Below, one piece after another: positions 12,646 to 64,000 of a DNA stretch of 64,000 nt. Each line of letters opens with the position of its first letter. The first letter of the stretch is position 1. The notes below the pieces were generated by a model, which was given only the letters and a program-made list of their open reading frames with translations, was not told the DNA's origin and searched no databases. The position numbers and the translations under genes are program-made. The DNA is taken from the IMG/VR virus record IMGVR_UViG_3300037397_000012. One strand, given 5' to 3'. This DNA is from an uncultured virus (IMG/VR IMGVR_UViG_3300037397_000012). Taxonomy: Duplodnaviria; Heunggongvirae; Uroviricota; Caudoviricetes.

Positions 12646-15600
12646 TTATTCTGTATAATTAAATGGTAAATCAGATATAAGATTAGTTCTAGCTCTTCAA
12701 TATTTAACTTTAGGTCTATATTTTATTTTCTCTATCTTTGGTGCTTTTTTCTCTTTAAATTTATATTTCATTGTTTCTAGTTTCTCCTGTTTCCTTGTTT
12801 GTGTTAATCAAGCCTCTTTTATTCATCAGAACTCATTTTTATTTACTTCATCTACTGCTCTTTGTAATACATATTTTCAATATTCCTTCATAGGTCAAAA
12901 TCTAAATGGGTTTATATTAAACAAATTTTCTTTAACATAATTTTGAACTCTATTAGTATATGCTATTGGATCTCTATCTAATAAGTCTTCATTATCTTTT
13001 ATAAATTGTTTAAGTGGTTCTGTTGTTTTAGAAAAATTAGGTCTTCATCCTGCTCAATATGAGGTCTTTCTTCAATTATTATATTTAGGTTTAAAATAAC
13101 TACTTCACTTCCGTTTTCAACTTTTATTTGTTTTTTTTCAATATGCAGCATTTCAAAATTGATTAGCTAATGTTCAAGAATCAAAATCATATGCGGTTTT
13201 ATCAAGCGAATAAGCCAAGTTAACAACTGCTCTATTAAAAGGATATATGCTATTCATAAATTTTTCATCATCTCTTAACCTATTAAAATTCTTGTCAGAT
13301 ATAAAATTAACTGAAGCTGTTAACATTGTTACTTTATCTTTATTAGACATTCAAGAAAACATCATAGCTTTAAAAGCATTCTTCAATACTAATGCTCACT
13401 TATCTGAATCTACAACATATCTTGTTGCTTCTGCTAATTTATTTCTATAATATTTAGCTGTATCTTTTCAAGCTTTTACATCATCTGTCATTATCTTATA
13501 TATCTCTCATTCTTGTTTAATACTGTTTATTATTTTATTCTTATCATCATTATCAAGATTACTATATGAATCAATTACATCTTTATGATTAGCTCTTACT
13601 TCTCATCATAATATAATTCACATTAATCAAGCATCATTATTGAAAAGATCTTTATGTTTAATTAATGATTCTCTTTTTAATTGTAAATTTATTTCTGGTT
13701 CTAATTCATATGGATCTGGTTTACTGTTTTCATTTGCATAATCAATTTTTCTCTGTTTTAAATCTTCTGTATATAAAAAGTTAAGAACTTCTGATGTTGT
13801 TATTCAAGATTCATGTGATCTAAATAATAAATTTTTATATGACGACTTAGACCTTTCTCATTTTAAATCATTCCGTTTTTTATTTATATATCTTCTAAAT
13901 TCTGCTTCTTTCATCTTTCATTTAGTAAATCACTTATTTACTCATTCTCATTCAATATTAGCTAATGATCTAAGTATGTCTGCCCTTATCTTGTCTATCT
14001 TTCAAAAATAAGCTGGTTCTCATTTTATTGTTTTAACTTTTCATCAATCATCAGCTACCTCTGTTTCTCAAGAAAGTCATATATATTTATCTAATTCCTC
14101 TATATTTAATTTTTGTTCTTCTGTTATTTTATCTCATATTTTTCAAGTATATCTAGTGAAATCATATTGATTTTCCAAATCTCATATTCAATTACTTTCA
14201 AGTTTTTTTACATTTTCATCTTCTCTAACTTTATTAATAATATCAAAGAAGGCTCTATTTTCTCAAATAATTGTTCTATCTCTTATATTAAAAAAATCAA
14301 TTAATGTTTTTACAAATCATTTAGATTCATAAGTAGCTGCAGATCTTTGTCATGCAAATTCATCTTCTAATCTTTCATATTCTGTAAATGATCATAATCA
14401 TAACATTGATATTCACATACTATTTCAATATTTATTTCATATATCTTCTGAAAATTCTAGTCACGAATTTACAGCAAATACCGCAGAAAAATTATGCAAT
14501 ACTTGATCTATTGATTCCCACCACTTATTTCATTCATAATCATCTGGTAAATAATCATGGTATTTAATTATCTCATTTCCTACATCTATCATCTGTAATG
14601 TTCTAAAATATCTTGTTATAGCTTTAGATGATACATATCATATTGTATCTCAAGTTCATAAATCTAATGCTTGTGCATCTTTAAAACTATCAATATATAC
14701 TCAAGTTAATATATCAAATCATACTAATGTATTATGCATTGATCTTACAAAATCTGATATGTTTGTTTTATCATCTACATCTTTATTGTATTGTTCTATC
14801 TTTAGTCACAATGCTGTAATTGTTGTTAATAATCTTGCTTGATAAGTAAATGACCTATAAACATCTTTGAAATTATTCATTGCCTGTTCTAGGCTTCTTT
14901 CTTTTGTTATTCATAATAAATAATTTAATCAAGTGAATACTTGTCAAGCATCTTCTATTCTTGATAATACTTTATTTATTCACCAGTTTCATAAAAATCA
15001 AACTCAACTATTCCAAGTCTGAAATAAATATCTAGTCATTCATCACTCATTTCAATAAGCATTATTAAATGTTAATTTATTAGCTTTATATAATGCATCC
15101 TTAGAAGATACTCATCATCATAAATCATTGTATACTATTCTTGCTTCACTAGAAAATCTTGCTAAAAATTCTTCTCTTCATACTTTTCATAATGACTCTG
15201 CTCTTATTACAAAGTCTTCGTATGATTTAATTCATAATCTTTCCATTACAGAAGCTGTTGATGCTATTCTTCTACTATGATCCATTGGAGCATCAAATGC
15301 GGCTAACGAGTTATTTATTACTTGATTTATAGCATTAAGTGTAGTTACTGTATTTTCTAAATTTTTATCACTAAATATTTTATTTATAATATCATATTGT
15401 CATAATTTTCATTCTCTTATTCTTCTAGCAAACATTGGTAATTTTTCTTGATAAAGTAATCAAACATGTTTTGCTATTGCATTTTCTGTACTTTCTAATC
15501 AAGATATTTCAAATCATAAAGTATTTTCCATACTTAATAATCAAAATCTTTTATTCACAGCTTCTGCTTCAACTGCCAATCATGTGTTTGCAATTAATGT

Positions 15601-18600
15601 TCTTGTTTCTAATAATTGTCATGTTACTTGTGTCATTCAAGCCATTATTCATCAAGCTCATAAAAATAAACTTGGTAAAGTATATCTAGCTGAATAATAA
15701 AGATTATGAAAAAATCATAAGAAGTTTCATACTTTATCATTCTCTTTTCTTACCATTAAAGAATATAATGTTTGTCATCTTGATAAATCAATTTTATCTC
15801 ATATCTTAGCAAAATAATCAACTACTTTTTCTTTTGTATTTAATCAAAAAGAATTTAATAATAGACTATGATCTCATTTAATTGAATTAAGTATATCTTC
15901 TATCAAGGAAGTTCTAGCTGTTTTATCTTTCTCTTTATAATATTTTCCTTTTCATTTATATTCTCTTAAAAAATTTATCTCTCAAGGAAATTTATCTTGT
16001 GTTACATTCATTATATTAACAATCTTTGTTAATGAATCATCATAGTATTCCTTCAGTCTACTATTAAATAAATCATCGTTAAATATTGGTAAATCACTTC
16101 AATAAGCCCTTACTTCTTCATTCATTCTATCTATCATTCCTTTTTTTATATCTTCTATGCTTGGTAATACATATTTTCATTCTTCTATTCAGATTCAATC
16201 TTGCACTACAGAATTAATCATATCAATTATATAATCAGCTCTATTACTATTTCAAAATAAATTTCAAAACCTCTTTCATGATAAAACTTTATCTACCCTA
16301 CTTCATATCGCTCATTGATAAACTAAACTCTTTCTTCTAAGTTCTACTACTCACATTTGCATATATAAATTTTCTATTTTACTTAATCTTTGTATTATTT
16401 CTGGATTTGTTCTTTTTACATCTGTTATCCATTTTCTTGCTATACATTTGTCTCTAGTTGTTTGTAAATAATTACTAACTCACATTATTTCAGTTAATAT
16501 CTCCTCATTAAATTCAGGTTTAAAAAATGATAAATAAATTCATTTTGGTTCTTGAATTGATGTATTCTTTTGTAATATATTAAATAGATCTAATGTTTTT
16601 TTCTCTGCCGCAAATTCTGGTATTTTTATTTTTTCTAATCTTTTGTTTATCTCTTCATTCAATATTTGTATTTCATTATCTAATAATTCTTTTTCCTTTT
16701 CTAAAGCTGGCTCAAAATTTTTACTATGCTCTATTGCTTCTTTATACATTGTCTCAATATCTTGTTCTGTTTTTCATTCTAGTATTTTAGAATCTATAAC
16801 TCTTTTAGATCTTTTCTCTTCTGCATATTTTATATATTCTACTAAGTCACTATCATTTAAGTAGTCTGCCATTCATAGTATTTTGTCACCATGTAATTTC
16901 TTAAACTCTTGTCACTGGTCTTTTGTTAGTGTCTTTGAATATAATGCTAACTTATACCTTTGTTCTTTTTTTAAATTTCAAGATTTTAATAACTTTTCAA
17001 TTCATCATTTTTTTGTTACAGCACTTTTAACTATAGGATCTTTTAATAATACATCTTGTATCCATTCTTTTTGTCATTTAGATAAATATATTAAATCATC
17101 TATATAGTTATCTCAACTACTGTATGAATTAAAATATCACCCTCTTAACCCATATTCTGCTACAAATCTTTCTTTTAATTGACTTACTGTTGATTTCTTT
17201 CAAGCCATATTTCATTCAAGTAATCTATTTAATAGAAACTTTTCAGAACTAGTAAACATTATTGAATCATGTATTGGTCTATACATAGATTCTAAATGAT
17301 TATATAATTCTTTTTTATTTCAACTAAGATTTCATAATGCATCTCTAAGTTGTCGTGAGTTGTTTGCTTTTGGTATTGATCATAAGAATTCAGTATTATA
17401 AGATGTTGATATTGTTCATACTTTATTCATTATATCTGCTTTTTTTTCTACGTCTGTTGTTTTAAATAATCTCTCAACTAATGGATTATACCAATCTTTA
17501 TCAAATGAATCTTTTCATGAGTTTCAAAAATCAATTGTTAATTGAGTTATAGATGCTGAATCTCTATGGAAATCATCATCAAATCTATTTATAAACTCTC
17601 TTAGATTCTTTCTATTTATTTCTCATCATGTTCAAATATTAAGAAGTGATTTTATATTTGGATTTATTGTATCCAAGTATCTTTTTAGTTTTATATTATC
17701 TGTTATTGTGTTTATCTTTTCTGCATGATATCTAAGTATATTAAATGTTCTTATTGTAGCTTGTACAACTCATATATTATACTTAGCTTCTAAAGCTGCA
17801 TTTCTTGAATCTACTATTGAAGCCTTAGATGCCTTTTTAAGTTTTCACTTTTCTACTTGATCAACCATTATAAATCTACTTGGTTTTTCTTTTATACTTT
17901 CAACTAAAGCCTTATGAGTTCATGGTGTTATTATTTCAGGATTAAAAAACTTATCATACTTTGATGTTAGATCTATTTGTTGTTTTGATAAAGGTATATT
18001 TTCTAATGCTCTAGCTATTATATTTGTATATTTATCATGTATTCAAGATACAAATATATGGTCTCAGTCACTATCAGATTCTAATTTTAAATAAGCCGTT
18101 TCAGGATTTGTTATAATTGCATGATCACTTATGTTATCAAATATTCTTATCTGGAATGTTCATGGATTATATTTATTTGATACTGGATATCTAATTGCAA
18201 CAACTTGATAGTCTGATTCTTTTAAGACTCTCTCAGCTTCTATTAATTGTTCTTGTAATTTTTTTACTGATTTATTTTGTGACTTCAATTCTTCTATTCA
18301 TAAATTCAAATCTTTTATAATTTTCTTCTGATTATTTTCTAGTTGTTTAAATAATTTTGAATTCTTATTTATTCCTATTTCATTTGGTGTTACATCATGA
18401 GAACATTTATAATGATAGAATGATTGTCATTCTCATCTATTCTTGTTTATTATTTGACTAGCTTCTGATAAAAATGTATCTACTTTAGATTGAATAACTT
18501 CATCAGAAAATTTACCTATTCAAGTTCATGATGTTACATTTTGTATGAAAGCATTTAAATCTCAATATCATAATTGCCCTATTTCTTTTTCTGTTAATTT

Positions 18601-21600
18601 TGTTTTAAATGTTTCAAATAGATTCTCTAATTCTTGCATTTGTACAGCCTTAAAAGAATCTTGATACTCTGGTCAATATTTAATAATAACAGAATCATTT
18701 ATTGTTATATCCTCATAAGAATCTCATTCTTCTGCTGCATTCTTAAACCATGATTTATTTGCATTATCTACTTTTCATAATACTTGATATTTATCATATT
18801 GTTTTGTTTCAGGATTATATCTTTCTATTATCTTTTGTTCTTTTTCTTTATATGGCTTATATCATCCATTAAGTTTAGCTGAACTTTCTCAAATTAATAC
18901 TGTATCTTTTAATACTTTGTCTCATTCTTTTAAATCTCAAAAGTTTATAAGATTCTTTCATAAAAAGTTTTCTCAGTTAGAACTTCAAGCTATATGAGTT
19001 TTAATCTCATTTAATTTATCTTTTCAATTAATTATAGCTAATTCATCTCATAAATTCTGTGATGCATGTGATGTTCAATCTTCTAAATCAGTTCAGTATT
19101 TTTTTCTTAATGCATCATAATAGTTTAATAATGCTGATCTATTATCATCTACATCTGGATTGTATCATGCATTATTAAGAACCATAGTGTATTCAATTCA
19201 TTCTGGTGTATCTACTCAATATCTTTCTAAGTCTACTGATGATAATTCATTATATCTATCTTTTGCTAGTAAGTATTCTGGATTTGTCTCATATTTAGAT
19301 ATTGACTTAAATTCATTTAAAGATGTTAATAATTCATCTTTATTCTTTATCCATTCTTTTCTTTTATATAAGTTGTCATTAATCGCATTATCAATAAGCA
19401 TGTCTGTAACATCTATCTTATTTCAATATATTGTTGAGTATATTTTATTATCTCATATTGATTTCTTTAATATCTTATTTAATTCATTTTTTACTTTATC
19501 AAAGTTTCTTAATTCAGTTAATCAAAATTGTGTCTCATCTATTATTTCTTTAACCACATAAAGATCTACATCTCATTTAACATCATCAAACAATGAATGC
19601 GTTGATGTATATGATGCTTCTCTTTTTCTTATATTTGCTATTGCTTGAGCTAGTCACCATTCGTCAGCTTTATTTTTTCAGTATACAATTTTATCTCATT
19701 CCCATTTAGGTAACCCTCATTGTTGAAGTCATAAAGGTATTTCTAATTCTATAACTTTCTTTCTGAAATCATCATAAGAACTAAATGTATTTTTCAATAA
19801 ATCATCAACATTGTTTTTTAATAGATCATTATTTTTAAATCATGCTGAAATGGCATAATCAATAAATCATAAGTCTTCAATTATCTTTCAATAATTCTCT
19901 GGTGTTATTTTTTTAGATCAAGTTGTTACTTCTTTTTTTATCTCTTTCTTGATTATTTCTGGCTCTATTCAGAAACGATCTAAAAAACTTTTATCTTTTC
20001 TATTTTGATTTAATCTAAATATTATTTGTTCTTTTATTAATCCCTTATTTTTATTTGATATCTTACTTACATCATTTCATATATTATTAATTTTTTCAAT
20101 TAACTCTGTTCAGTTTTCAGTAATCCCTATTATTAATCCATTAACTCAATCTGAAACTATTCAAATTTCTGCTCATATTTTATTACTCTTGATTTCTAAT
20201 CATTCTACTTCAATCTCTTTTCAGTCACTAGTTAATAAGTTATATTTCTTTTTTTTGTTTTTTATTCTTAAATCTTTTTTATCTATATTAATTTTGACAT
20301 CAAGACTAGTTTCAATTATTTCCTTTTTTCTTTCTTTTCATAATTTTAATTTCTTATTTGAATATATAAGTCAAAACCCTGACTTATCTCAGAAACCTCA
20401 CATGTATATTTCTCACTTACCAAGTCCTAACTTTTTCCTTATTGTATCTCTTAATTCTTTATTATTTCTCTTTCAGTTTATTGTATCAATAATAAATCTA
20501 TATTTTTCTATTTCATCAAGAACTCAAAAACATTCTTTTCTTATATCTTTATTTCAATTAAATACTTTTATTTTATTCTCATTACTTAAATCTTTTCATA
20601 GCAAAAGATTTACTCTCTGTTTCATTTTTAATTTACTATCAATATCTCATGTATAATATATAAGTTTATCCATTGAAGATATTTTTTCAACTGCACTAAA
20701 TCATTGTCACTTATCTATTATTCAATCATTTACTAGTTTCTTACCAACCTGTTTTCTGTGTAATCTCTTATGTAACTTACTTACTTCTCATCATGTCAAT
20801 AGTTTACTGACATTCTTAGTGTCAGCTCACGTTATATATTTAAAGTTTCAATTTGAATTCTTTTTTATATCATTCCACATTATTGGAACTTCTTGAGGTC
20901 ATATGTCACTTACTTTTGTTGTATCATATTCTATATATTTTCAAGACTTATTAGAAAATCATTCTTTAGCTTTACTTAATGAAAAGCTTCACTCAGTATT
21001 AAGCCTTTTAATTCTTTTAAATTGCTTTCTTAATTTTCAATCTTTAAGTATATCATCAATAAGCTCATCTGTTATGTTTGTCTTTTTTCAGTCAACCATA
21101 GCATATGTTTTCTTATCTCACATTACTTTAGTTAACATTTCTCTTAATTCCTTATCAACTTCTTTCTTAACTTCTTTTGGTGTCACCACCTTTCATTTAG
21201 AATAAGAAGACTCATTTAATATTTTGTTTAATTTCTTATCATCAAAATAAAGATTATCTATAAACTTATTTAATTTACTTCAACTCTTATTATAAGAATC
21301 TAATAATGTTTCTCACTTCTTTATTCAGAATTCTTTATTGAAATTATCTACATAAACTTTATTAGATTCATTAACATCTGATCTAATTATTCAGTCATAG
21401 AACTCTTTATAAACAGGATTGTTTTCTTTTGCTTGTTCATAATTAAATACACCATCAACTCTGTTTTGAATATTCTCTTTTAACTTATTGTAATTAATAT
21501 CAGTTAATCATGCATCTGGTTTTGCTAGATTATCAAGATAAGAAGTTATAAAATCTTTATAAGCTTGACTATAATACTTCGCATCCTTTGTTCATTTTAT

Positions 21601-24600
21601 TTCTTTTAGTATATCTAGAGTTCAGAGTTCAGCTTTCTTTTTTATATTTTCCATTCTTTTTATTAATCTCTCTCATTCATCTTTTATAATATCTCTCTTT
21701 TTTTCTTTCTCTAATAAATCTTCATAAGCTTTATATGTTTTACTTTTAGTTATCCTCTCTTCATTTAGTAATATATCTCTAGCTATTGTTTGTCTATAAT
21801 TGTTTATTCTTTTAAGATTTGTTTCATTTGTATAAAGTTGAGTTCTTGCTTTTATAAATCAATCTAATCATTCCTTCTCTATATTCTTTTTATTTTTAAC
21901 TAATAATCTTAAATCTTTTTTTAATGCTTTAAGATATTCATCCATTTCTCATCTAGATCTATATTTTCATAAATCCCTTAATTCCTTTTCTATTTTTTTT
22001 ATATCTTGTTTTCTTAATTGAATAGCTGATTCATGTTTAGATATATTATTCTCATACTCTATTCTTAGTGTTTCTTTTATTTTCTTTGAATAAGGTGATT
22101 TCACAGTTTTAGATAGTCAATCAACTATTGTATCGCTCATTAACATTCTTCATAAAACACTTTCAAATTCTTTATCTGGTATTGCTTCATCAAAGAACTT
22201 TTTAATTTTGTCTATATTTCAAAAATAATTATAAGCAAAATTCTTTAGTATGTTATCATCCACAACATCTCATTCAAATACATTATCTTTTAAAAACTTA
22301 GATACTTCATCAAATCTTTTAAATTCTTTTTCTCAAACATCTTTAAATGAATTTTTAATTACATTCATTGTTTCTTCAAATGTTTCTCATACATCTTCTA
22401 TGTTTAAATATTTAATAGCACTTTCTACATCTATATATCAATCTGCATTAAATTTTCAATAAGACTCTAGTTTTTTTATAATATTAGAACTTCATTCAAT
22501 ATATTGTTTTATTATTGATTTATCTTTAATATTAACTTTTGCCTTATTTGATAGTCATTTAATAAATGAATTGTGTTCTAATTTCTTTCATGGTAATAAA
22601 TATGCTATTTTATTTTTATATTCTTTAAAGTTCTTTTCTCATGGACTTCAAAAGGCAAAACTAAAATAAGCATCTTTATCTAATCATGTTTGGATTATCT
22701 TATCTCAAGATAAACTCTTAACTCATAAATCTATCGGTGTCTTTGCTATAAGCTCATCTCAATAATAAGCCCTCATTGCATCTTCAAATATTCATATCTC
22801 TTGCCTTGATAACTCTTCTATTTCATCTTTTGATAAATTTGTTTTACTTAATGGTGTAGTATATGCATACTCACCATTAATTGCTTTTGATAATTGTTCA
22901 TTTATATTTTTTTCAACTTTAGAAATGCTATAAAATTTATCTGATACTTTTCATTTATCATCAATGTATTTAGCTTTAGATAATCACTCTTTAAGTTTAT
23001 TAATTTTTTCAGTTATATCTGGCAAACTAACTATATCTTTTATTTGTTTATTAGATGTTTTATTGCTTGTAAAAGAATAAAGTGATCACTCTGTTGCGAC
23101 ATCTGGTACCTTAACCTCCTTTCTAACTTTATCATCTACAAATTTTAAATCAATTATTCAATCTGCTACTATCTCACTAAAATCTTTTCATTTCATTTTT
23201 TCTAAATCTTTTATTCATATTGATATCTTATTGTTTGTAACTGTATCATAAAGTATAACTTGTTCATTTTGATTTGAGAATTTTCTAATTGCTGGTACTA
23301 AATTATCCATTAACTTATCTACTTCTTTATAAAAAGCTTTTTTTCATTTGTTATTTTCTAATTGTTCTACTTGTTTAATTAAACTTGCTCTTGTTTCTGC
23401 CGCTCATTCTCATTTATAATCCATAAGTAAATCTCTCCATATTCTGTTCTCTTTTTTAATTCACTTTCAAGCAACAAAGTTTTTAATTGTTTTTATCTCA
23501 TTATCTATTATTTGAGAATATACTTTCTTATTAACATCTGATATTCATTTTTGTGTCATATTTTTATGAACTGAATATAGTAAGTCTTCTGTATCTATCT
23601 TCTTTCATAATATATCGCTAACCTCAACTCATATTCATCAGTCTATAAACTTCTTTATTTTTGTTTCATTAGCTACCCTTAATGAGTCACTAACAAAATT
23701 ATATAGTTCTCATCTTGATAAATAATCTCTTTGTGCTCTAGCTCATATAGATTTAAGTGATAATTCTCATTCTCTAAATAATTGTATTCATTGTTTTCTT
23801 GTTATTTTTAATCATGTTTTTTGATAATAATGTTTTATAAAATTATCAAGTGCAGCCGCTGATTCTGTTCATTCTTTAAATACTTTATTAAAAAAGTATG
23901 AAGATCATCATTGGTATCATTTTTTTAGTGCCCATCACTTTACAGCTCATACTGTATCAAATCAAAAATCAAATACTATATCAGTTGTCATATTAAATAA
24001 CATTTGCTCTTTACTTGCTGCATCTCATCATAATCTATCAAAGATAGGATTAGTTGTTACTCCTGATGTAACTGATTCAACAATCATACTAGATGCTTTT
24101 GTTGTTGTATCATAAAGTCATCTTCAAAAAACTGATAATCATCTAACTCAAGTATTAATTGTTCATAATAATACAGGAGCTTTTGTTGCAGCAATTGAAG
24201 ATAAAGCTTCAGTAGCCTTAGCCAAATAAGTTGCTCATCTAGGAGTTATCTCAGTTAGCTTTTCTCATCATTTAATTAATGCTGTTCACACTCATGATGA
24301 TACTCAAGAAGCTGTTCTAGTTATTCATGATCATATTGCAGATCATCAAAATGTTGTAGCTAAAATTCAAGGAATACTATTAGTGTTATAAAATAACATA
24401 GATGGAATACTTTCCCAGTATGTATCATATGTATATCTAAGAGTTCTAACTTCCCTTGCTATTTGTGCTTGTCTTTCTAATTCCTTTGCCTCTAATTCTA
24501 CTCATGGAACAATAGTCGCTCAATAAGAAGATACTTTATCTGTCGCCTTTCTTACTCAATACTCAACTGCTGTTGCTGTAGAATATATTGTTTGTAATAC

Positions 24601-26535
24601 TCACATTCAAGCATTAGAGAATGATTCTTTAAATTCTCATTCACTAAGATTTTTAAAAGACTTAGCATATTCTCTCATTGATCATTCCATTTTTAATATA
24701 CCTTGAAACTTTGTTTTAAGATCTGTTATAGATGATAATGATTCTTTTTCCTCTTCTGTTAACATTATATTAACCCTGTCATCAGCTATATTCATTAATT
24801 TATCAGCTGACATATTCCTGTATTTTTTCTGTTGTCTAAGCTCAGCCATTGTTTCATATACTCTCTTAGAATATTTTTTTCTTGCATCAAATCATTCAAG
24901 TAATTTTTTATAATCTGTTATAAGAATAGTATCATTATCTTTGTTATATCAGATTAATCATTCTATTTGATCCTTGATTCATACTGCATATGTTACATCT
25001 TCAACTGACATATCTACTATTTTTTCAAATAGTTTTTCTCATTCTTTAGATGTAGCAAATCATGGGTTCTTAGCTTTCATTTCTTTTAGTCACTTATCTT
25101 CTTCTATAGATGTTTTAATTACTCTTCCTATTTTATTTAAATTATTACTAAGGTATTCTAATTCTTTTTCTTTTCTTTTTTCTTCCATAAATTCCTCTCA
25201 AGTTTGTCATTCTTTAACATTAAATACTTTTGTTGTAAAATCTTCATATTCTTTTATCTGTTCTTCTTTCACTTTACTTAATTCATTTAATCTATTAAAT
25301 GACTCATTTGTATTTAGATTAGTTGATACATTTTTTATTATGTCTTCTGTAGTTCATATCTTTCTTAATATTTTATCCTGTAATTTCTTTTGTTCTTGCT
25401 GATTATTTAAGTCTCATTTAAAATTCTGTGTCTCTTTATAATATTCACTTATATATTTATTATAAGTTTCATAATCTTTATTTCATTGAAGATTATTTAA
25501 TTGAGTCTTAATTTTTGATTCTGTATCATTTACATTATTTTGTAAATCATAAATCTTATCTGTGATTACTCTTTTATATGCTCATCAAGTAGTTTCAAAA
25601 AATCATGGATCTACAATATTACTTATATCATCCATCTTTTTTAACTCATCTACTGGTTTAATATAGTCATCAAACTCTCACTTTCATGTTACATAATCTT
25701 TTCAAGCAATAGCTCAAGCTTTAACTAAATCTCAAAATTGATCATAGTAATCTCATGTAGATACATTTTCAAACTCTTTTCTTATTTGTTTTGTATCCTT
25801 AGTTTCTAATGGAGTATATAAACTAACTAAATTATCTAGTTCTTTTAGTTTGTCTTTTCAATAAATTGAATTTTTATTTACATTACTTTCTGATCAAAAT
25901 GTTCAAAGTCACAACCTAAAATACTCTGGCATTTTTCCTGCAGTATAGAACATATCTTTACCAAGTTGAGAAACTACTCATAATTTTTCTGTAATAGAAT
26001 CTTTTATAACTGGTGCAACCTCTTTAGTTGTATCAATAGGATTTGAAACAAATCAAGATATATTTCAAGCTATATTCTGAGCAATTGATTTTTCTATTCA
26101 AGACCCTGAATAATCTTTAAGGTATTCTCATAATACATCAGTTGCCTTATCTCCTGCATCTACTGTAACTTTAATTTCAGCTGTAAGTGGATCTTTAGCT
26201 ACATCTCATAAATAAGAAACAACTTGTCCTGTAACTCATCATATCTCTTTTCACTTTTCCTCTATAGCTCTTCATCACAAGTCTGTAACTATATCTAATG
26301 TTTGACCTACTTCTTTAGCTGATTGCACTATTCATTTCTCTTTTATCTGCTCGGCTCACTCTCTAAGTTTCAATGTTTTATCATCTAACTCTTTTACCTT
26401 TTCTCAAACTATTGATGGTGTATCTTTTATTGACTGCTTAATTCATTTACTTTGTATTTGCTCAATTCATTCGCTAAGTTTTAATGTATCATCTATTGAC
26501 TCTCAAATATCTTTAAAAAAATCTTTTACTCACAT
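12646..26535 (-). CDS. Giant (~4,629 aa) predicted virion protein with two-barrel RNA polymerase domain
   Basis: Start, stop and track fragments 16540-16749 and 19216-19401 share one frame (not every codon checked); motifs EDGTSHAS, YGKNL, ESSAKL, IRYP and NPETAYLKLESDSDGDHIF (DSDGD at 18061-18075). Confidence 0.75.
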
Positions 26536-28899: not shown

Positions 28900-30850
<1,951 letters not shown>

Positions 30851-33455: not shown

Positions 33456-33698
33456 CTAACTATTATTTCTCCTATATTCTAGTTCTAATTCTATAGGTAA
33501 TGTATCTATTTCTGATTTAAAGTATTTTTTTATATTTAATAAGTGAGATGTTTTCATCTGACTTATCTTATATAATTTTCATTTTCTATCTCTATGAAAT
33601 CATAGAGACCATAGATTATAAACTTTTTCTTTGATGCCTTCTAAGGCTCAAAAGTATAATCATGTATTAGCTTCCATATCATCTGTTGTATCTGACAT
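33456..33698 (-). CDS. Hypothetical protein, 80 aa
   Basis: Open frame containing GKLYKISQMKTSHLLNI. Confidence 0.55.
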
Positions 33699-33720
33699 AT
33701 TTTTAATAATGTTAATAAAT

Positions 33721-33753
33721 AAAAAATCCCACACTTAAATATAAGCATGGGAT
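33721..33753 (-). terminator. Intrinsic terminator of the crRNA-like unit
   Basis: Minus strand ATCCCATGCTTA-TATT-TAAGTGTGGGAT followed by TTTTT. Confidence 0.75.
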
Positions 33754-33924
33754 ACGATAGCAATCTTCTCTATCGCTAGGTAATGTCATTATCTACAAAA
33801 GTAGAAATAATAAATATATGTATTCTACACTTCCACTAATCATAATGATTATGTGAAAGTGAAAAGATTGAGTACTCTTCTAAGGTTTCCATCTACAAAA
33901 GTAGAAATGTAGAATACATATATT
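33754..33924 (-). CRISPR. Two type V-A (Cas12a) crRNA-handle repeats (mini-array or solitary repeat units); no cas genes in window
   Basis: ATTTCTACTTTTGTAGAT on the minus strand at 33891-33908 and 33791-33808; matches the Cas12a handle AATTTCTAC-TNTT-GTAGAT. Confidence 0.75.
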
Positions 33925-33944
33925 CTTATTTATACCTTTATAGT

Positions 33945-33972
33945 ATTATATTTATTTTTTTATTTTAATCAA
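33945..33972 (-). promoter_or_regulatory. Sigma70-like promoter upstream of the crRNA-like unit
   Basis: TTGATT-N16-TATAAT on the minus strand. Confidence 0.6.
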
Positions 33973-33987
33973 TTAAATTTTCTAAAT

Positions 33988-35112
33988 TTAGTTAATTCAT
34001 AAAATATTTTTAATTTTATTTTCTTCTTCTTTTAGATCTTCCATTGCGGTAAGAACTAATTCTAAATCTTTTTCATTAGTAAGATATTTATCTTTTTTAC
34101 TAATAAGATAATTCAATACTTGATATGAATACTTATATCAAGAATATGAATAAAATCATCTAGGCATCATGTAGCTCTCAAACTCTTTATCTAAGTATAT
34201 AGGCTTAGATAATCATCAAGCTATTAACCTATGTGTATTTAAATTATTTTTAATTTTCTTTATTTTCTTTTTGTATATTTTTACATCTTCTACAGATGTG
34301 TAATATACTGTCTCGTCACCATCACAATATCATGGTCTACCTAATCTACCTAGCTTCTGTTGAATTACTTCTCAGCTATCGTAAGGGTTATAATATATCA
34401 TAACTTGTTTAGCTGGGAAGTTTAATCATTGAGCTAGTACATTAGTACTAAGTATCAATGATATCTTTCATGACTCAAAATCTAATTGAGTCTGCAATCT
34501 TTCAGCTGGTTTTACTGCAGCTGAAATTATTTTAATCTTATCTTCTGGAAGTCAAGTTCTTTCACTCCATTCTTCTATATCATATTCACTAGGTGTGTAC
34601 CTAACAAATACTATAGATGACATTCAGTCATGAACATTAAATTCAAACTCACTAGAAGATATTTCTTGTTTCTTTGGAATTACCTTATAAGGTTTTAATT
34701 CCTCTGTCACGAATCAAAGTTCGTGGAGTTCATCATCTTCTAGGTTATTGGTAGCTGTTGCTCCAATAACTTGTATTCATTTTTCTTTTGCTAGTTCTAT
34801 AATATAATATAGATTAGCTCATCTATCTTCATCAGATAGAAAATGAAATTCATCTATGAATATTATATCATAGTCTTCTAGGTTTATTCACTGAACACTT
34901 TCGTATACAGCGAATATTCATTTATTATTCTTAGGTTCATGGTGAACCTCTCAATTAAGTATTGAGTAATCTTTATTTCAATACTTAATAAATGATTCAT
35001 AGCATAGTTGCCTACACGGGAATAATGCTATAAATCTTTTGTCACCATATCTATTGAAGAACTGATAAGTCTTACCAGTTCATGTACCTCAAGTTAATAA
35101 TATATTATTCAT
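33988..35112 (-). CDS. SF2 DExH (Ski2-like) helicase, 374 aa
   Basis: GGTGTGKT, IFIDEFH, ATAT, STNVLAQGLNFPA, QKLGRLGRP. Confidence 0.9.
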
Positions 35113-35177
35113 AAATAAATAATTAGATAAATAAAATAAGCCAATAAAATTACTATATCTTATTGGCTTGTTACTTA

Positions 35178-35217
35178 GTCACAATCCTTTCGCTCGTGAC
35201 TGATATGTAGTCAGTGA
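35178..35217 (-). promoter_or_regulatory. Repeated intergenic promoter-like element (copy A)
   Basis: gtcacaatcctttcgctcgtgactgatatgtagtcagtga, identical at 39653-39692; partial copies at 31535, 33416 and 48781. Confidence 0.6.
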
Positions 35218-36729
35218 CATATTAAATAAAAATATATCACTTATTTAAATAATCTTTTTTAAGACCATCTGAAAGACTATCTGGAAAAACAATTTTATCA
35301 AATGATTTTCAGTTAGCTTTCTTTTCAATAGTAAATTATTTCCTTTATCTTTTCTTTACAAAAGAATTTTATCACATTTTCTTCAGAAAACTCTTTATTA
35401 TTTTTTAAATAAAAATTTATTATTTTTTTTGTATTCATATATTATTATTTATTTTATAAATCTTTTTTCTTCTACTTTTATATTTCATTACATAATTGAA
35501 AACTTGTATCTTTTTTAGAAACTACACACTCCATTTTCTTTCAAGTCTTTTTTGAGAATCATTTTCAGAAATAATTATGATTATTCTCTGAAATAGACCA
35601 ACAAGATTCAATTTCTAAAAACATATTACACTTCTCTCTTCTGTCTTCTGTTATTTCTAATCATTCTTTATAAGCATCTTTACTACAATCATACAGTGCT
35701 AAAAAGATAAATGTAAATGAACAAAGTAAAACAAAGATCCTCAATTTAAGATGTTTTCTATTCTTTTTCATAAAATGGTTATTAATAAATAAAATAAATA
35801 TATTATTCTTCTAACTTCATTAGCTGCTCTCTATATTCTTCTAGGTTATTTTTTTTTATATATTCATCCATATCAAATGGAATACTTGTTGCTAAGCAAT
35901 TAATTCATTTTGATATTTCGTCTATTATTTCTAATGTTTTAAGTATATCTAATCATATATTATTTAAATATGCTTGATATATTTTATATATTAATTTATT
36001 AGCAAAACAATTACTTAATAAATCAACATCTAAATTATGCACTTTTTCTATTTCAATAGATCAATAATCTATATCTAATCTATTAGCTAGATCATCTATA
36101 AATTCTTGATCTGCTTTTGATATATAAATATCATCAAATGTTATCATGAGTTTTTAATTAATAATAAAATTACTTCTTTCATTTTCTTATTTTAAAAAGT
36201 AAGTTAAATTTCTATTTCACATTCAGAGTTTAATTCATATTCAAACTCTATTACTTCATATTTACCAACTGTCTCCCGTCATCATCAACTAGCTCTTTGT
36301 CTTTCTATATATAGTCATTCTTTTATTTCATCATAATTTCAATTTGAATTGTAATATCCTACAGAATGATTATATAATTTCCTTGCTAACTCATCAGCCT
36401 TATTAAATGAATCATATACTCATTTTATTGTTGTCACAGACTTACCTCTGTAATAAGAGTAATCTATTTGTGTTACTAAATATAACATAATTTATTTTTT
36501 ATTTTATTAAAATATCTTTTTCATTTTCATCACTTAAATTTTCTATACACATATAGTGTTATATCTTTATTTCATTTCTTTATTTCCCATCATAATTCTA
36601 ATAAATGATCTATGTCACGAATATAAGTATCAATAGAATGAAAAGATATTAATCTAACTACACAATCCTTAATTGTTTTTTCTTTTCATTCTAAATAGTT
36701 TCATGTTTGTGTATCTAATATTTGATACA

Positions 36730-49857: not shown

Positions 49858-50859
49858 CTAGTTAATAAATAATATATATAATATAAAAGTTAAATACATA
49901 ATCAATAAATTGAATCAATAAATCTTTTTTATTACTCATTTACTGTTTATTGAATATGTTGTTACAACATATACGATAACCGAAAATATTAAAAATGCAA
50001 ATATAGGGATTATAGAATTAAATTCAATAACTGGATTTAATCACATAAAACTAGTTCATATAAGTATAGGTACTCATAATCAAATGCAAACATCAAAAAT
50101 ATTTGATCAAACTGCATTTGATAGACTAGCATCTATATTTCATTTCCTAGAAGATTTTACTGATAATAATGTATCTGGTATAGATGTTATTGCTGCTAAT
50201 AATACTAGCGATATTACTATTGTAGATATTCAAAACATGCGTCATATAAATTCAGCACATCTTATTGATAATTCAACTCATATATAAGTTAAAAATAACA
50301 TAAATATTATTTTTATAAACTTAATATTTGGTAGCCATGTTATAGTATCATCTGTATCATCATCTTCTGATTTACTTTCCATATATAAATATATTATATA
50401 AAAGCAATATAAAGATATTAACAATATAGACATTATAAATAAGTTACCAACATACAATCATGCAAGTAATATAATTATGCTTAACATGTAAAATATAACA
50501 TCTCTGTTTACTCAGTTAATTATTTTGAATCATTTCCTACTAACTCTCTTATATAAAAGAATAGAACAAAATGGTATTATTAATATATTAAAAATAGCTG
50601 ATCATGATATTGTTCATATTCAAACTTCTAATCCTTTTTCTTTTAATAAAATCAAACTAATAATTGCCGTTAGAAATTCAGGCAATGAACTTGATATAGC
50701 ATCTAGTGTTGCTCATCTAACAGATCAAGTCATTTTAAACTTATTTCATATTATAGATAACTGATCTTCTAGTTCTCATGTAGCATAATTTATTAAAAGC
50801 ATACATCATAATAATGTAAAAATAACTCAATAAATATTTCAAACTAATATATTTAACAT
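49858..50859 (-). CDS. Cation/Ca2+ exchanger (CaCA, YrbG-like), 333 aa
   Basis: alpha1 GATLDAISSSLPE...GSAIFN; alpha2 AAITSIPD...NAVGSNIFD; many TM segments. Confidence 0.9.
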
Positions 50860-50913
50860 TCTTAATTATATATTTAAAAAATAAAAGCCAAGCAATAACT
50901 TGGCTTATTATCA

Positions 50914-51441
50914 CTATAGAGATTTAACAACCTCTTCAATGTTACCTTTAAGATAATCTCACATAGCTTTAAAACTATATCAGTCATCTTTGTCAGTTAC
51001 AACACCTACTACTATAGCAGTATTGTCACCACCATTTTCTGTCATCTTATATGATGCAAGAACCTCATCAGTCTCGTCATTGTAAACTTTACATTCAGCA
51101 TTGTTTACATCTTTCAATGTTTGTCATTTTTTATCTGCTTCATATATATTTACACATATAAAGTATTCACCATCTGCAGTTAAAACGGCATCCATTTTAG
51201 CAAATTCATCATCGCCATCTCATTCACCAGTTAGATTATCATCAGATAATTGAACTCATTTTATTGCATTCTTCTTATTGAAGTAAGCAACCTTATTACT
51301 ATCTTTATGAAATATAAATAGATCTAAATCCATAGTTTTCCCTTCAGAAACATCCCAAGATAATCATACTCTTATCTTAGATATATTAGTTCAGTCTTCT
51401 TTTTTTAGGTCTAGACTTTGACCTTTAGTTAAATCCAACAT
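50914..51441 (-). CDS. terD: TerD-family protein, 175 aa
   Basis: LDLTKGQ, VGLSWD, MDLDL, DNLTGEGDGDDE. Confidence 0.9.
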
Positions 51442-52236
51442 AATTATATATGTTAAAAAATAAAATATTGAGTAAATAAAAAAACTCAATGTGCGTGTTG
51501 AGTTTTTCCTTGTATCATAATCAATACAAATCACGCACTCATCTGTATTGATGTTTATCATATTATTATTTTTTTTATTTAAGTCAAATTATTTTTTAAA
51601 AAATTATAAATCTTTTCGTAAACTTCTTCTGTTTGTTCGTCTAGGGATTTTTTATTATTTAATTTAATTCTTAATTCTTTAAACATATAATTGAAAATTA
51701 AATTACCTCATACAAGAGATAAAAAAATTTTATTTTCTTCACAAAACCACTCTAGGTGGTGTCTATGTATAGGGTTTCAGATTATTTTTATTTCAAAATT
51801 ACCTTCTTCAAGATTTAATAATTCCATTCAAAAAATAAAATTATTATCATTCAATAAAATATATTCTTCTCAATTAGGTGTTTCTATTCAATAGTCATAT
51901 TCATTAGTATCTAATATTTTTAATATTGTTCAAAACTTCAATTCTTCCAAATCATCCTTTATCTCTGGAATTGTTTTTAATAATTCTATTAGTTTATTTT
52001 TATAGTTCATATTTTTTAATTAAATTATAAATATTATCTTTAAATTATATTATAAACTTTATTATTTTAAACTTAAATAATTATCATAAAATTCTTCTAC
52101 TAGATTTTGTATATCATGTAATTTATCTAGCATTTCTTGATCTTCTATAAAGTCTTCTTTTACTTCCTTTTCTATTCAGTCAACAAATTCAAATATTAAC
52201 ATTCATTCATTTTTAGATGGATACCATCCATATATA

Positions 52237-52626: not shown

Positions 52627-54913
52627 AAAAATTATTTAATTCTATTTAAATGTATATCATATCAATAATAACTAACTCATCAATAAGTTATATTACAATA
52701 TATTTTTCTTTTTCTGTATTTCCTTCTTTGATGTTTTTTTGTTTTTATCTTTAAGATTCAAACACGACTCCATAATTCATAATTCATAATCATTAAGTTC
52801 ATAAAATAAACCACTTGGAATTTTAGATCTATTATAAGCTGTTCATGCTGATGATATTTATATATATAGAGTATGTTCATTTGTTTCCCATATTCTAATT
52901 TATTAAATAATTATAATATTATGACTCACTTATAATTTTAAAATTAATATTATCATTACAAGTATACTTATATTTTCATCATCATATTCAAAAGTGACTT
53001 CAGCAATTAGGGCAGTATTCACTCCATCTATCTATATCTGCAGAACAATATTCACAATAATATCCTTGATATTCTCTATTTATTTTATGTTTACTACATA
53101 ATAAATATTCCATTGTTCATATATGTAATATTTGTCACGGATCATCTCAAGCTTTTATTATAGAGTAATCCTTTCAACATACAACACATTTAAAATTATT
53201 CATTTTAAATTTTTTATCAAATTAAACTATAAATTGAAACTATTTTATTATTAAATGAATCATATATCTTATTCTTAAATCTACCTCGTAGATGTACGAT
53301 ATACTTTATTCATTTTAATTCAAATATTATTTTTCAATATTTCTTTTTAAAACTAAAGTTATTTTTAATATACTCAATTGTATCTATATGTTTTATGATC
53401 TTATTTGTTATTCATTTTAATTTTTCCAATATAGTCACAAACATATCTGTTACACTATAGGTATTACATCTATACTTATTATTATTACACTTAACCATTC
53501 ATTTAAATTTTATGTATCAATGAATTCTTAGGTGATTAATAAAATTAAGCATTTGTCTCTCTGATAATCAGAATCTAATTCACTCAAGTCTAGATATTCA
53601 TATTATTCAATATGTTTGAAATCTAACTTTTATTGTAAATAATATTCTATTAACTTGTTTTTCTGAAATATTTTTAAATAAGTTATTTAAATCTTCCATA
53701 ATTTATAAAACAAAAAAGAATACAGTTGCCTGAATGTATTCTTTTATAAGTTAGTTTTTTTAAAAACTCTCAGGCAAATGAGTTTCTAAAAATGTATCTC
53801 CTCAAATTTATGAGTATATAATAATAATTCTAAAAATAAAATCAAATCTTTTTTTTTATTTATTTAAAATAATCTATTGATAGCTCAAGATAAAGCTAGT
53901 TCTCATATTATAAATTTTTTCCTATCTATTAAACTTTTCTCTGTTCAATATGTAACCATTCAACAACTATAACATATTTCAACTTCTCATTCATTATAAG
54001 CTATTTCTATTCAATCTTCTCTATAATATTTATTTCACGAAAATTTAAATCAGTTTATTTTCATTATATTTGCAAATCTCATATTTTCCATTTTCTTTAT
54101 TTTAATAAATTAATAAAATTTTTTTCAACATCCATGATTTTAATCTGTTTCATTAATTTTATTTTTTCACTTTTACTCAAATTGAGATACTTAAAAAAAA
54201 TATCTCTAGTTTCTCTTTTCATTCAATCTAACTCTATTAAACTCATTTTAATAATTATTATCTAATAAATTAAACCACCTTGTATATTCAATCCTTTCAT
54301 AACTTATATTCATCAAATATGTTTTTTATAAATATGGAGGACTAAGTTTAGCCCATAACCTAGGGGTCATAACACCCTAGGATAGAAAAAGAAACCTCGT
54401 AGGTTACACGAAATTATTTATGTTGCAGTTAAATTACTATCCATGTTAGTACTATACATAAATAGCTAGAGACCTTTTATCTAGAACAAGGTTTTAACAT
54501 CTCTATGTTATATATATCTATGTATATATATATAATAAGAAGTGTTAAATTATAGCTCCACCAAATGAGCTACTCTTAGATATTTTATATAAAAAATAAT
54601 CATTAACCTTTTATCCAATTGTTGATGTACCACATCATAGTTGGTTAAACCAATTGCTTTCAGCTAAACATTAAACAATGATCAATCGTTTAATATCCTT
54701 ATCATTTTAAATAAAAGGCTACTGATTATCTTTTATAAAACAAAAAAGCTAACCAATTGGTCAGCTTTTATTACCTAAGTTTGACACCTAGATGGGTCAA
54801 CAGTACTAGGTGCTGACCAAACCTAGGTAACTGTTTTGTTACTTTACAAGAAGTAAAGACAATAGAAAATGCTTATATATATTAATATTTTTTTTTATAA
54901 TTGCAAATGTTTT

Positions 54914-62566: not shown

Positions 62567-64000
62567 TTAAATTATTGTTACATCCTGTATAACCTTTAAA
62601 CTTCATTGAGTTCAGTTATCTCAGTCTAATCAATTATTTCAGTTGTATGCTGTTCACACATATGGCGTAAGTGTTTGGTCTGTTGTGTTTTCTTCTTCAA
62701 CCTTTGTTCATCATGCTCATCATGATCATCATACTCATATTGATTGATTATATGAAATTGAATTTGTTCAACTATGATAAACTATAAGTATACCTCAGCT
62801 TCAACCTCATCAACCTCATCAACCTCATCATCAACCTCAACATCACATAACCATATTTGTTTGATTATCAACTATTGCATCTGATCAATTTCATCAATTA
62901 GTTCAACTAGTTCATGATGTATTAATTACTCAAACTCAAGATAAATCTTTTGCATATAGTAATACACCTAATCAACTTCATCATCTTTCTCATCATGCTC
63001 ATCATGCTCATCATGATCCTCAATAATTCCAACTTCATATTGGTGTTGTATCTCATACTAGTCACGAACCTGAATATGCATCTCATCAATCTCATCATAT
63101 TTGATTCACTCAACCTCACGCTCATCACGAAGAAGATCATCAATCTCATGAATTAACTATAATAAAATCAGCTCAATCAAAGTATGTTCAGTTTCAAGCT
63201 CATCATACTCAAGCTGGATTTCATCAATCTCATCAATCTCATCATCATCATGTTATGTTTATATATGTTGCTCATGGTGATGTTCAAAAATGAAACACTG
63301 ATCAAACTATTCATCATCAACCTCATCATCAATATCACAATGCTCATAATCATCATGTTCATCATGGATTTCATGAATTACTTCAATATCAAATTGTACT
63401 TCATCAATTTCATCCTCCTCATCAATTTCAACTAGATCAATTAATTACCGTTTCTCACCATATAAATGAATCTAATTCCTCATTTGCTGACCTATAAGTT
63501 GACTTATTTGATAGATCTATTTCTCAATTTATTGTACATGTTCATTTACATTTTAATTGTAAAAATCATGATACATCATTAGTTGATAACTTAGCTCATG
63601 CTGCTATGTTAATATTATCATATTGATATAATTGATTTGTATTTAAGTATGTAGTTCAACTTAATACATTTAAATCTCAGTCACTACCATCTCAATATAT
63701 GTATTCTGAAAATTCTGTTGTAGATGCTGTAAAATATTCTAATGCAGTTCATCATGCATTAACTCTTAATTGTTGTAATGGTGTTCATAATGTACTTAAT
63801 CATGTTCATCAATTGTCATATTGTAATACTGATGATACATTTGTTGAATTTAGATTTATTGGATTTACTATTATTATTTGTCATCATCATGATATTAAAT
63901 AACTTTCTGGACCTGCTAATACTACATCTCATGTATTTGTTCAACTTATATTATTTGCTGTTATATTTCATGGTGTATTTATATTTCATCAATCATCTAT
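62567..64000 (-). CDS. Glycine-rich tail/receptor-binding protein (5' end outside window)
   Basis: Long TGA/GGT runs reading as poly-Gly; GDGSDGDLNVLSG motif. Confidence 0.8.

Follow-up and report, generated by a model that had tools for sequence, protein, structure and literature searches.

Two Cas12a-type handles in a candidate anti-CRISPR RNA unit of a phage predicted to infect code-25 CPR bacteria

Viral solitary repeat units inhibit a type V-A CRISPR system, as reported for RacrVA1–3 (Camara-Wilpert et al. 2023, PMC10651486). The SRUFinder pipeline clusters full matches lying within 100 bp of one another into arrays and discards them (PMC10651486). CracrVA1 combines a single repeat-like handle with a spacer-like part and a terminator (Liu et al., 10.1101/2024.10.29.618823); its RNA is processed by Cas12a to 40 nt, binds without cutting and outcompetes crRNAs (10.1101/2024.10.29.618823). 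The 30 Cracr arrays in the main text of that work are of types I-C, I-E and I-F, none being of type V-A, and the hosts given there are Pseudomonadota, Bacillota and Actinomycetota, with no mention of Patescibacteria, Gracilibacteria or candidate phyla (10.1101/2024.10.29.618823). The Racr study likewise has no mention of CPR hosts (PMC10651486). Roughly half of V-A loci have been described as containing stand-alone repeats, for the most part located upstream of cas12a (PMC10120712).

The unit described here lies in a 64-kb stretch of DNA that was analysed as a whole (the window). Like Racr, it is a repeat mimic carried by a virus among phage genes, outside a cas locus, and would be expected to tie up the Cas effector; unlike a solitary Racr, it has two handles 82 nt apart. 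It resembles CracrVA1 in being phage-borne and in having a promoter-like site (weak), a handle, a spacer-like part, a rho-independent terminator as well as a short usable guide. CracrVA1 is single, whereas the phage unit is double; multiplexed units on one transcript are described among Cracr of other CRISPR types. In contrast to Cracr, the phage unit has no detected spacer match to CreR or a cas promoter, and it possesses an enclosing long stem, a feature that is not described in the Cracr main text, where the word ‘stem’ is absent (10.1101/2024.10.29.618823). Host CreR-like units also consist of a handle followed by non-spacer sequence, but they are chromosomal and adjoin cas12a, whereas the phage unit is far from any cas gene and has different guides. 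With a V-A array the unit shares an identical 18-nt repeat 3′ end and a repeat-like length of ∼36 nt; it differs in its number of units (two), 100-nt period, diverged 5′ halves, lack of a leader or cas genes and structured inter-handle sequence. The format of two V-A handles on one transcript with non-array spacing and a repeat-derived stem is absent from the published main text. Thus, the kind of element is already described, and what is new is the pair of V-A units at non-array spacing, the repeat-derived stem, the hairpin-limited guides and the setting in a phage of a code-25 CPR host. Since SRUFinder discards clustered matches, a two-handle format could be missed by detection pipelines.

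We consider the unit to be probably a viral crRNA-like anti-CRISPR RNA of the Racr/Cracr V-A kind, which would load host Cas12a and blunt V-A immunity. The identity of its handle to host repeats, the presence of Cas12a in the host clade, its strand-specific structure and the published precedent argue for this reading, as do its intergenic position, its strong fold and the recurrence of solitary handles in viral contigs. Several results count against it: the collections searched contain no relative of the unit that could reveal conserved or covarying features among phages, the base before each handle differs from the A of the host sequences inspected, the promoter call is weak, there is no full-length spacer match to the window, no acr or aca gene was found near the unit among the ORFs scanned, and the class sample contains no array with a repeat 5′ half resembling that of unit 2.

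Anatomy and phage setting of the unit

The 18-mer ATTTCTACTTTTGTAGAT (the handle) occurs in two exact copies on the minus strand, at 33908–33891 and 33808–33791 with a spacing of 100 nt, where the original prediction had placed them. The unit occupies a 290-nt intergenic gap on the minus strand that has an SF2 helicase gene on one side and a small ORF on the other, in the same orientation as the phage genes and with a terminator at its end. Its features, in the order of the presumed transcript, are as follows.

33988..35220, minus strand: SF2 DNA helicase gene, upstream flank; 410 aa under code 25
33945..33972, minus strand: promoter-like TTGATT-16-TATAAT; 10/12 consensus matches, weak evidence
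33900..33924, minus strand: long stem, 5′ arm; the innermost 9 nt are shared with handle 1, and the outer 16 nt (33924–33909) are antisense to the repeat 5′ half of unit 2
33891..33908, minus strand: handle 1, ATTTCTACTTTTGTAGAT, identical to the 3′ end of Cas12a-type repeats; preceding base C
33862..33890, minus strand: guide-like sequence 1 (GGAAACCTTAGAAGAG...); first 10 nt mostly unpaired, then a weak hairpin
33828..33861, minus strand: internal hairpin of unit 1, predicted by folding to stack on the long stem
33813..33837, minus strand: 3′ arm of the long stem, forming the 5′ half of unit 2, which is repeat-like; contains AATACATATATT
33791..33808, minus strand: handle 2, identical to handle 1; preceding base T
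33777..33790, minus strand: guide-like sequence 2, open part AATGACATTACCTA, 14 nt, from sequence and ensemble folding
33755..33776, minus strand: stable hairpin immediately 3′ of the open stretch of guide 2; 7 positions with an unpaired probability of 0.0
33716..33753, minus strand: intrinsic terminator; 12-bp stem (33753–33726), 4-nt loop and T-run
33456..33698, minus strand: small ORF, downstream flank; 80 aa when started at the ATG at 33698, without a family match

A search for the handle at up to three mismatches gave three matches in the 64-kb window, against a shuffle mean of 0.62, and the pattern TCTAC-N3-5-GTAGA also occurs three times, against 0.11 expected (0 of 100 shuffles reach three). 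A third hairpin at 53280–53292 lacks the handle prefix, lies inside an ORF and was rejected as a handle.

The sequence TTGATT-N16-TATAAT that had been taken as a promoter is present at 33972–33945 on the minus strand with 10/12 matches. Such sites are not enriched in this AT-rich (25% GC) DNA (6 against 10.4 expected locally, and 71 against 76.3 in the 27–36 kb region) and the site is therefore weak evidence for a promoter. If it is used, transcription would start near 33938; read-through transcription from the helicase gene is also possible. Among the sequencing runs listed, the sequence is contained in one DNA run, possibly that of the source sample, and in no RNA run. The terminator, likewise part of the original prediction, is found at 33753–33726 (minus strand) with a 12-bp stem and a T-run, and is the sole one in its 1-kb region, against 0.0 expected. 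Rfam yielded no matches at gathering thresholds over the whole window; around the unit there were chance-level matches alone (E of 0.85–8.3), none of them on the handles.

Under translation table 11 the ORFs of the window are short, and when TGA is read through, tightly packed minus-strand genes emerge. The encoded lysozyme, CHAP, DnaB, helicase, radical SAM, TerD, Na/Ca exchanger, head–tail adaptor-like and tail-fibre-like proteins identify the window as phage DNA. Reading TGA as Gly (code 25) outscored reading it as Trp (code 4) in all six proteins tested, with 302 versus 266 bits for DnaB_C and 127 versus 63 for Na_Ca_ex, and the lysozyme and CHAP matches were lost under code 4. As TGA encodes Gly, the host should be a code-25 bacterium belonging to the Gracilibacteria or Absconditabacteria. 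No cas gene was found among the 36 ORFs scanned against Pfam or the 22 scanned against PHROGs, in agreement with the original prediction, and no acr or aca gene was found near the unit among the ORFs scanned against these collections.

Several other regions of the window were recorded. A single 4629-aa ORF at 12646–26535 (minus strand) contains 324 TGA codons read as Gly and has no Pfam match at E ≤ 0.01; it represents a giant phage protein of unassigned function. Near-identical palindromic hairpins, ATTGGCTATTTATAGCCAAT and variants, occur at about 29764, 29929, 30156 and 30563 within 29660–30580 (plus strand), a region with few minus-strand ORFs and a change in the sign of the GC skew, and could constitute an origin or a set of operators. 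The ORF at 62567–64000 (minus strand) is extremely dense in TGA (80 of 257 codons in the shorter reading and 117 of 477 in the open-ended one) and under code 25 would encode a very glycine-rich, probably repetitive protein. At 49858–51561 (minus strand) a membrane protein of the Na/Ca exchanger family adjoins a TerD-domain protein, both unusual auxiliary genes.

RNA fold and the repeat-derived stem

The RNA from about 33940 to 33715 has a predicted folding energy of −74.5 kcal/mol compared with −38.9 ± 3.8 in shuffled sequences (z = −9.35), a stability that none of 200 shuffles equals. In the predicted transcript fold both handles adopt the 5-bp stem and 4-nt loop of a Cas12a handle, with ensemble pair probabilities of 0.75–0.87 for handle 1 and 0.81–0.96 for handle 2. 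The outer 16 bp of the long stem (0.81–1.0) coexist with both handle hairpins in the ensemble; the inner extension of the stem, the alternative that swallows handle 1, has a probability of 0.09–0.34. The 3′ strand of the internal hairpin of unit 1 (33828–33861) has a possible alternative partner in the 5′ half of handle 1. Guide 1 stays largely unpaired over its first 10 nt and guide 2 stays open over its first 14 nt, each then entering a hairpin, so that ensemble folding bears out the hairpins noted earlier behind the guides.

The perfect 17-bp inverted repeat reported in the original prediction is real and extends to 25 nt (33813–33837/33900–33924) with 92% complementarity at the DNA level. 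As minus-strand RNA all 25 positions pair, two of them as G·U, whereas the plus strand pairs 23 of 25 with two C·A mismatches. This strand-specific pairing points to selection on the RNA of the handle strand.

The two handle copies sit in a 36-nt direct repeat of 83% identity, in which both handles are intact and identical and the 5′ halves have diverged (12/18 identities). The 18–22 nt located 5′ of handle 2 align with the 5′ halves of genuine V-A repeats of CPR bacteria, with a common 12-nt core, AATACATATATT, and a 2-nt insertion before the handle in unit 2. In view of the direct repeat and the CPR-like core, the earlier statement that only the ∼18-nt handle and not a 36-nt repeat is present was too strong. 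The resemblance of unit 2 to a nearly full-length repeat is suggestive, a grading lowered because the 12-mer is not rare in the window (10 matches with at most one mismatch, against 7.66 expected); when position and orientation are taken into account, p is roughly estimated at ∼0.04. No array with a repeat 5′ half like that of unit 2 was found in 401 genomes of the class; one match to this half was a coding coincidence and was rejected as an array. The sequence 5′ of handle 1 is the reverse complement of the unit-2 repeat half. The core of the repeat is itself almost a palindrome; the copies differ twice, in each case in precisely the way that completes the pairing.

These features bear on whether the unit is an inert leftover from a host array or CreR region, gained by recombination and now functionless. 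The similarity of unit 2 to a full repeat is in keeping with such an origin, and solitary repeats have been described as remnants of lost loci (Shmakov et al., PMC10120712). However, a relic would not be expected to keep both handles intact and identical while its repeat 5′ halves diverged, to differ between these halves exactly where pairing is perfected, with the extension pairing through G·U on the handle strand only, to be framed by a terminator and a promoter-like site or to fold with a z score of −9.35. We regard this explanation as highly unlikely.

Handles and Cas12a in the host clade and in viral contigs

The exact 18-mer ends CRISPR repeats with a period of ∼62–63 nt in many CPR genomes, among at least 121 loci that have the 18-mer. 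The comparison with Gracilibacteria V-A repeats that had been suggested as a check showed the identical 18-mer at the repeat ends of at least six Gracilibacteria arrays (L062, L064, L070, L086, L102 and L137). Cas12a (TIGR04330), encoded with in-frame TGA codons, was detected in four of the five handle-bearing Gracilibacteria genomes tested and in 46 of the 401 genomes of the class sample, 40 of them over the curated cut-off. In genomes G003 and G004 the handle arrays are located on the cas12a contig, ∼2–6 kb from the gene, the handle thus forming the repeat 3′ end of arrays beside cas12a. A Cas12a with a compatible handle, on which the original prediction depended, is therefore available in candidate hosts, with Cas12a and the exact handle both occurring in Gracilibacteria. 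The base immediately 5′ of the 18-mer is C or T in the phage and A in the host repeats and solitary units inspected; the C and T before the phage handles might impair processing by Cas12a.

The identity of the handle to that of the host arrays also bears on a further reading, in which the unit provides guide RNA for a Cas12a-like effector of the phage itself, encoded outside the 64-kb window. The window covers just a portion of what may be a large genome (given the 4629-aa ORF), which leaves room for such a gene; no cas gene is present in the ORFs scanned, however, and both the host-identical handle and the non-array format speak against a separate phage system. We consider this extremely improbable.

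Repeat variants can coexist within one host. In the complete Gracilibacteria genome G002 (L182) the cas12a-adjacent array has a handle with a 5-nt loop, and a second array ∼490 kb away has the 4-nt TTTT loop of the phage handle, giving two V-A repeat variants in a single genome.

Three code-25 genomes, G270, G271 and G353, contain solitary handles of their own just upstream of cas12a. An exact handle precedes the cas12a ATG by ∼115 nt in G271. In G353 (L203, 2817–3040) two exact solitary handles lie 139 nt apart upstream of cas12a, and the second is followed 45 nt on by an inverted handle copy and a T-run, just before the cas12a start; judged by its sequence, this locus resembles a dual CreR-like unit that has an anti-handle terminator. 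In G270 (L204) a solitary handle with the loop TATT is found ∼100 nt before cas12a, with a spacer-like part starting AATAACGTT, of which a 9-nt seed with a TTTC PAM recurs in a palindrome ∼380 nt further upstream. This arrangement is consistent with autoregulation of Cas12a in a code-25 bacterium. The solitary units upstream of cas12a in these genomes indicate that a regulatory circuit that a phage could exploit exists in the clade. The spacer-like parts of the host solitary units are unlike the phage guides.

Relatives of the unit were sought with an IUPAC pattern that combined the handle with the merged guide seeds. Two viral and 14 metagenome matches lack the ATT prefix, lie in coding sequence and were rejected; no copy of either unit was found in the viral or metagenome collections searched, and no other viral contig contains a pair of handles 60–90 nt apart. 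A search for relatives of the phage through the single flanking helicase protein gave no phage relatives; 30 homologous proteins were found, the closer ones at 83% and 44–56% identity, and no handle occurs beside five distant viral helicase loci (≤33% identity). Solitary exact handles do occur in viral contigs, with 23 of 57 matches lying outside long open frames, several of them followed by a terminator. One 224-kb viral contig (L043/L046) has the exact handle at two distant places, and at L043 a second handle with the loop TTAT follows the first after ∼45 nt, forming a pair that resembles a mini-array.

Guide targets and the proposed role

The search of the guides against host cas loci proposed in the original prediction gave no PAM-flanked seed of at least 9 nt for either guide in the 28 cas12a loci examined. 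In the 401 class genomes TTTV plus 10 nt matched eight times for guide 1 and 36 times for guide 2, numbers that do not exceed those of reversed-pattern controls, and none of these sites is near a cas12a. The longest seed among all 44 sites is 12 nt, reached at four of them. No match of nine or more PAM-proximal nt to a host CreR/CreA, cas or toxin promoter was found in the 28 cas12a loci or, within the sample of the class, near cas12a. One of the four 12-nt sites is in the code-25 genome G205 (L266, 1471–1486; 25% GC), where TTTC plus 12 nt equal to guide 2 overlaps the start codon of atpB (ATP synthase a-subunit). This site is within chance expectation and is kept as a lead only, because its seed contains the ATG and no cas12a was detected in G205.

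In viral contigs guide 1 has one match of PAM plus 16 nt (L223), which lies within a structural gene of a T4-like phage that uses the standard code, does not extend past 16 nt, is at about chance level and was rejected as a target; guide 2 has no match of PAM plus 16 nt there. A TTTT plus 10-nt site at position 10194 of the window itself was judged to be due to chance. Among 1026 spacers from 68 arrays with the phage handle there were no full-length matches to the window, the best being partial matches of 18/18 at about the level expected by chance for AT-rich sequence; this search thus gave no link between such a V-A system and the phage.

The spacers and targets bear directly on the possibility that the unit is a hijacking mini-CRISPR array, whose guides would equip host Cas12a for the cleavage of rival phages, of plasmids or of host DNA. 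Two different guide-like sequences do follow intact handles, mini-arrays exploiting host Cas proteins have been described in phages (PMC10120712) and the array-like pair at L043 has the phage handle. Against this, the spacing is 100 nt rather than the ∼62–63 nt of real arrays, and the ‘spacers’ would be 82 and ∼70 nt long and strongly structured, whereas 25–29 nt is the commonest length among the 1026 array spacers. Moreover, no cleavage-grade target was found, the single 16-nt match of guide 1 in viral contigs being at chance level with none for guide 2, and no seed at any of the 44 host-class sites exceeds 12 nt. A mini-array is very unlikely.

Reprogramming of the Cracr type could instead be the main function, with one or both guides directing non-cleaving binding of Cas12a to a host promoter. 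The promoter could be that of cas12a itself, of a CRISPR-guarding toxin or of another host gene, and the unit could mimic a host CreR-like RNA. CracrVA1 works through only 10 PAM-proximal nt (10.1101/2024.10.29.618823), and the open parts of the phage guides, 10–14 nt ending in hairpins, are of suitable length. Stand-alone units occur in ∼49–56% of V-A loci (Shmakov et al., PMC10120712), solitary handles lie upstream of cas12a in G271, G270 and G353, the G270 seed has a site with a TTTC PAM, and guide 2 has its TTTC plus 12-nt match over the atpB start codon in G205. The evidence on the targets themselves is adverse: the 28 cas12a loci lack a PAM-flanked seed of at least 9 nt, the PAM plus 10-nt sites in the 401 genomes are not above control and none is near cas12a, the spacer-like parts of host solitary units differ from the phage guides, and the G205 site is within chance, with an ATG in its seed and no cas12a detected in that genome. 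As a main function, reprogramming appears unlikely, and guide-directed repression without cleavage is retained as a serious sub-hypothesis.

A more elaborate proposal is that the transcript is a nuclease-resistant ‘double docking’ RNA, in which the stem formed by the repeat 5′ half and its antisense copy joins the two handles, and hairpin clamps 10–14 nt into the guides enforce binding without cutting, turning Cas12a into a repressor of chosen host genes. A candidate target would be the start of the ATP-synthase operon, at the TTTC plus 12-nt match of guide 2 in G205. We think this quite unlikely; if true, nature would offer a structural means of achieving truncated-guide CRISPR interference, and phages of CPR bacteria would gain their first known RNA anti-defence element.

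The decoy or short-guide role put forward in the original prediction is partly supported. It agrees with the results obtained: the host clade uses the exact handle beside cas12a, and the anatomy is that of the published Racr and Cracr elements. No convincing guide target was found in the cas12a loci, class genomes and viral contigs searched.

The anti-CRISPR reading that we prefer can be outlined as follows. The unit would be a small non-coding gene of a phage infecting a code-25 CPR bacterium, with a predicted transcript of ∼220 nt comprising two crRNA-like modules. In each module an exact Cas12a 5′ handle would lead into a short guide-like stretch that stays open and then into a stable hairpin, with the terminator closing the second module. 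Both handles should be bound by host Cas12a, with cleavage probably taking place immediately upstream of each one, so that the phage RNAs would fill Cas12a in place of host crRNAs and weaken type V-A immunity against the phage. The mode would be competition, or a decoy effect, as for RacrVA1–3 and the titration component of CracrVA1. As the open guides extend for 10–14 nt before a hairpin, any DNA recognized would be bound and not cut. The 16–25-bp stem, in which the 5′ half of repeat 2 pairs with an antisense copy before handle 1, most likely stabilizes the RNA or sets its ends; a role as a processing signal is conjecture.

RNA anti-CRISPRs and viral crRNA-like regulators have been described only in 2023–2026 and for cultivable phyla. 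If the anti-CRISPR reading is correct, the unit would extend RNA anti-CRISPRs to phages of uncultivated, recoded CPR bacteria, in a host class in which Cas12a is common (46 of the 401 genomes). Its layout of a handle, a short open seed and a hairpin clamp would also offer a testable natural design for non-cleaving Cas12a guides.
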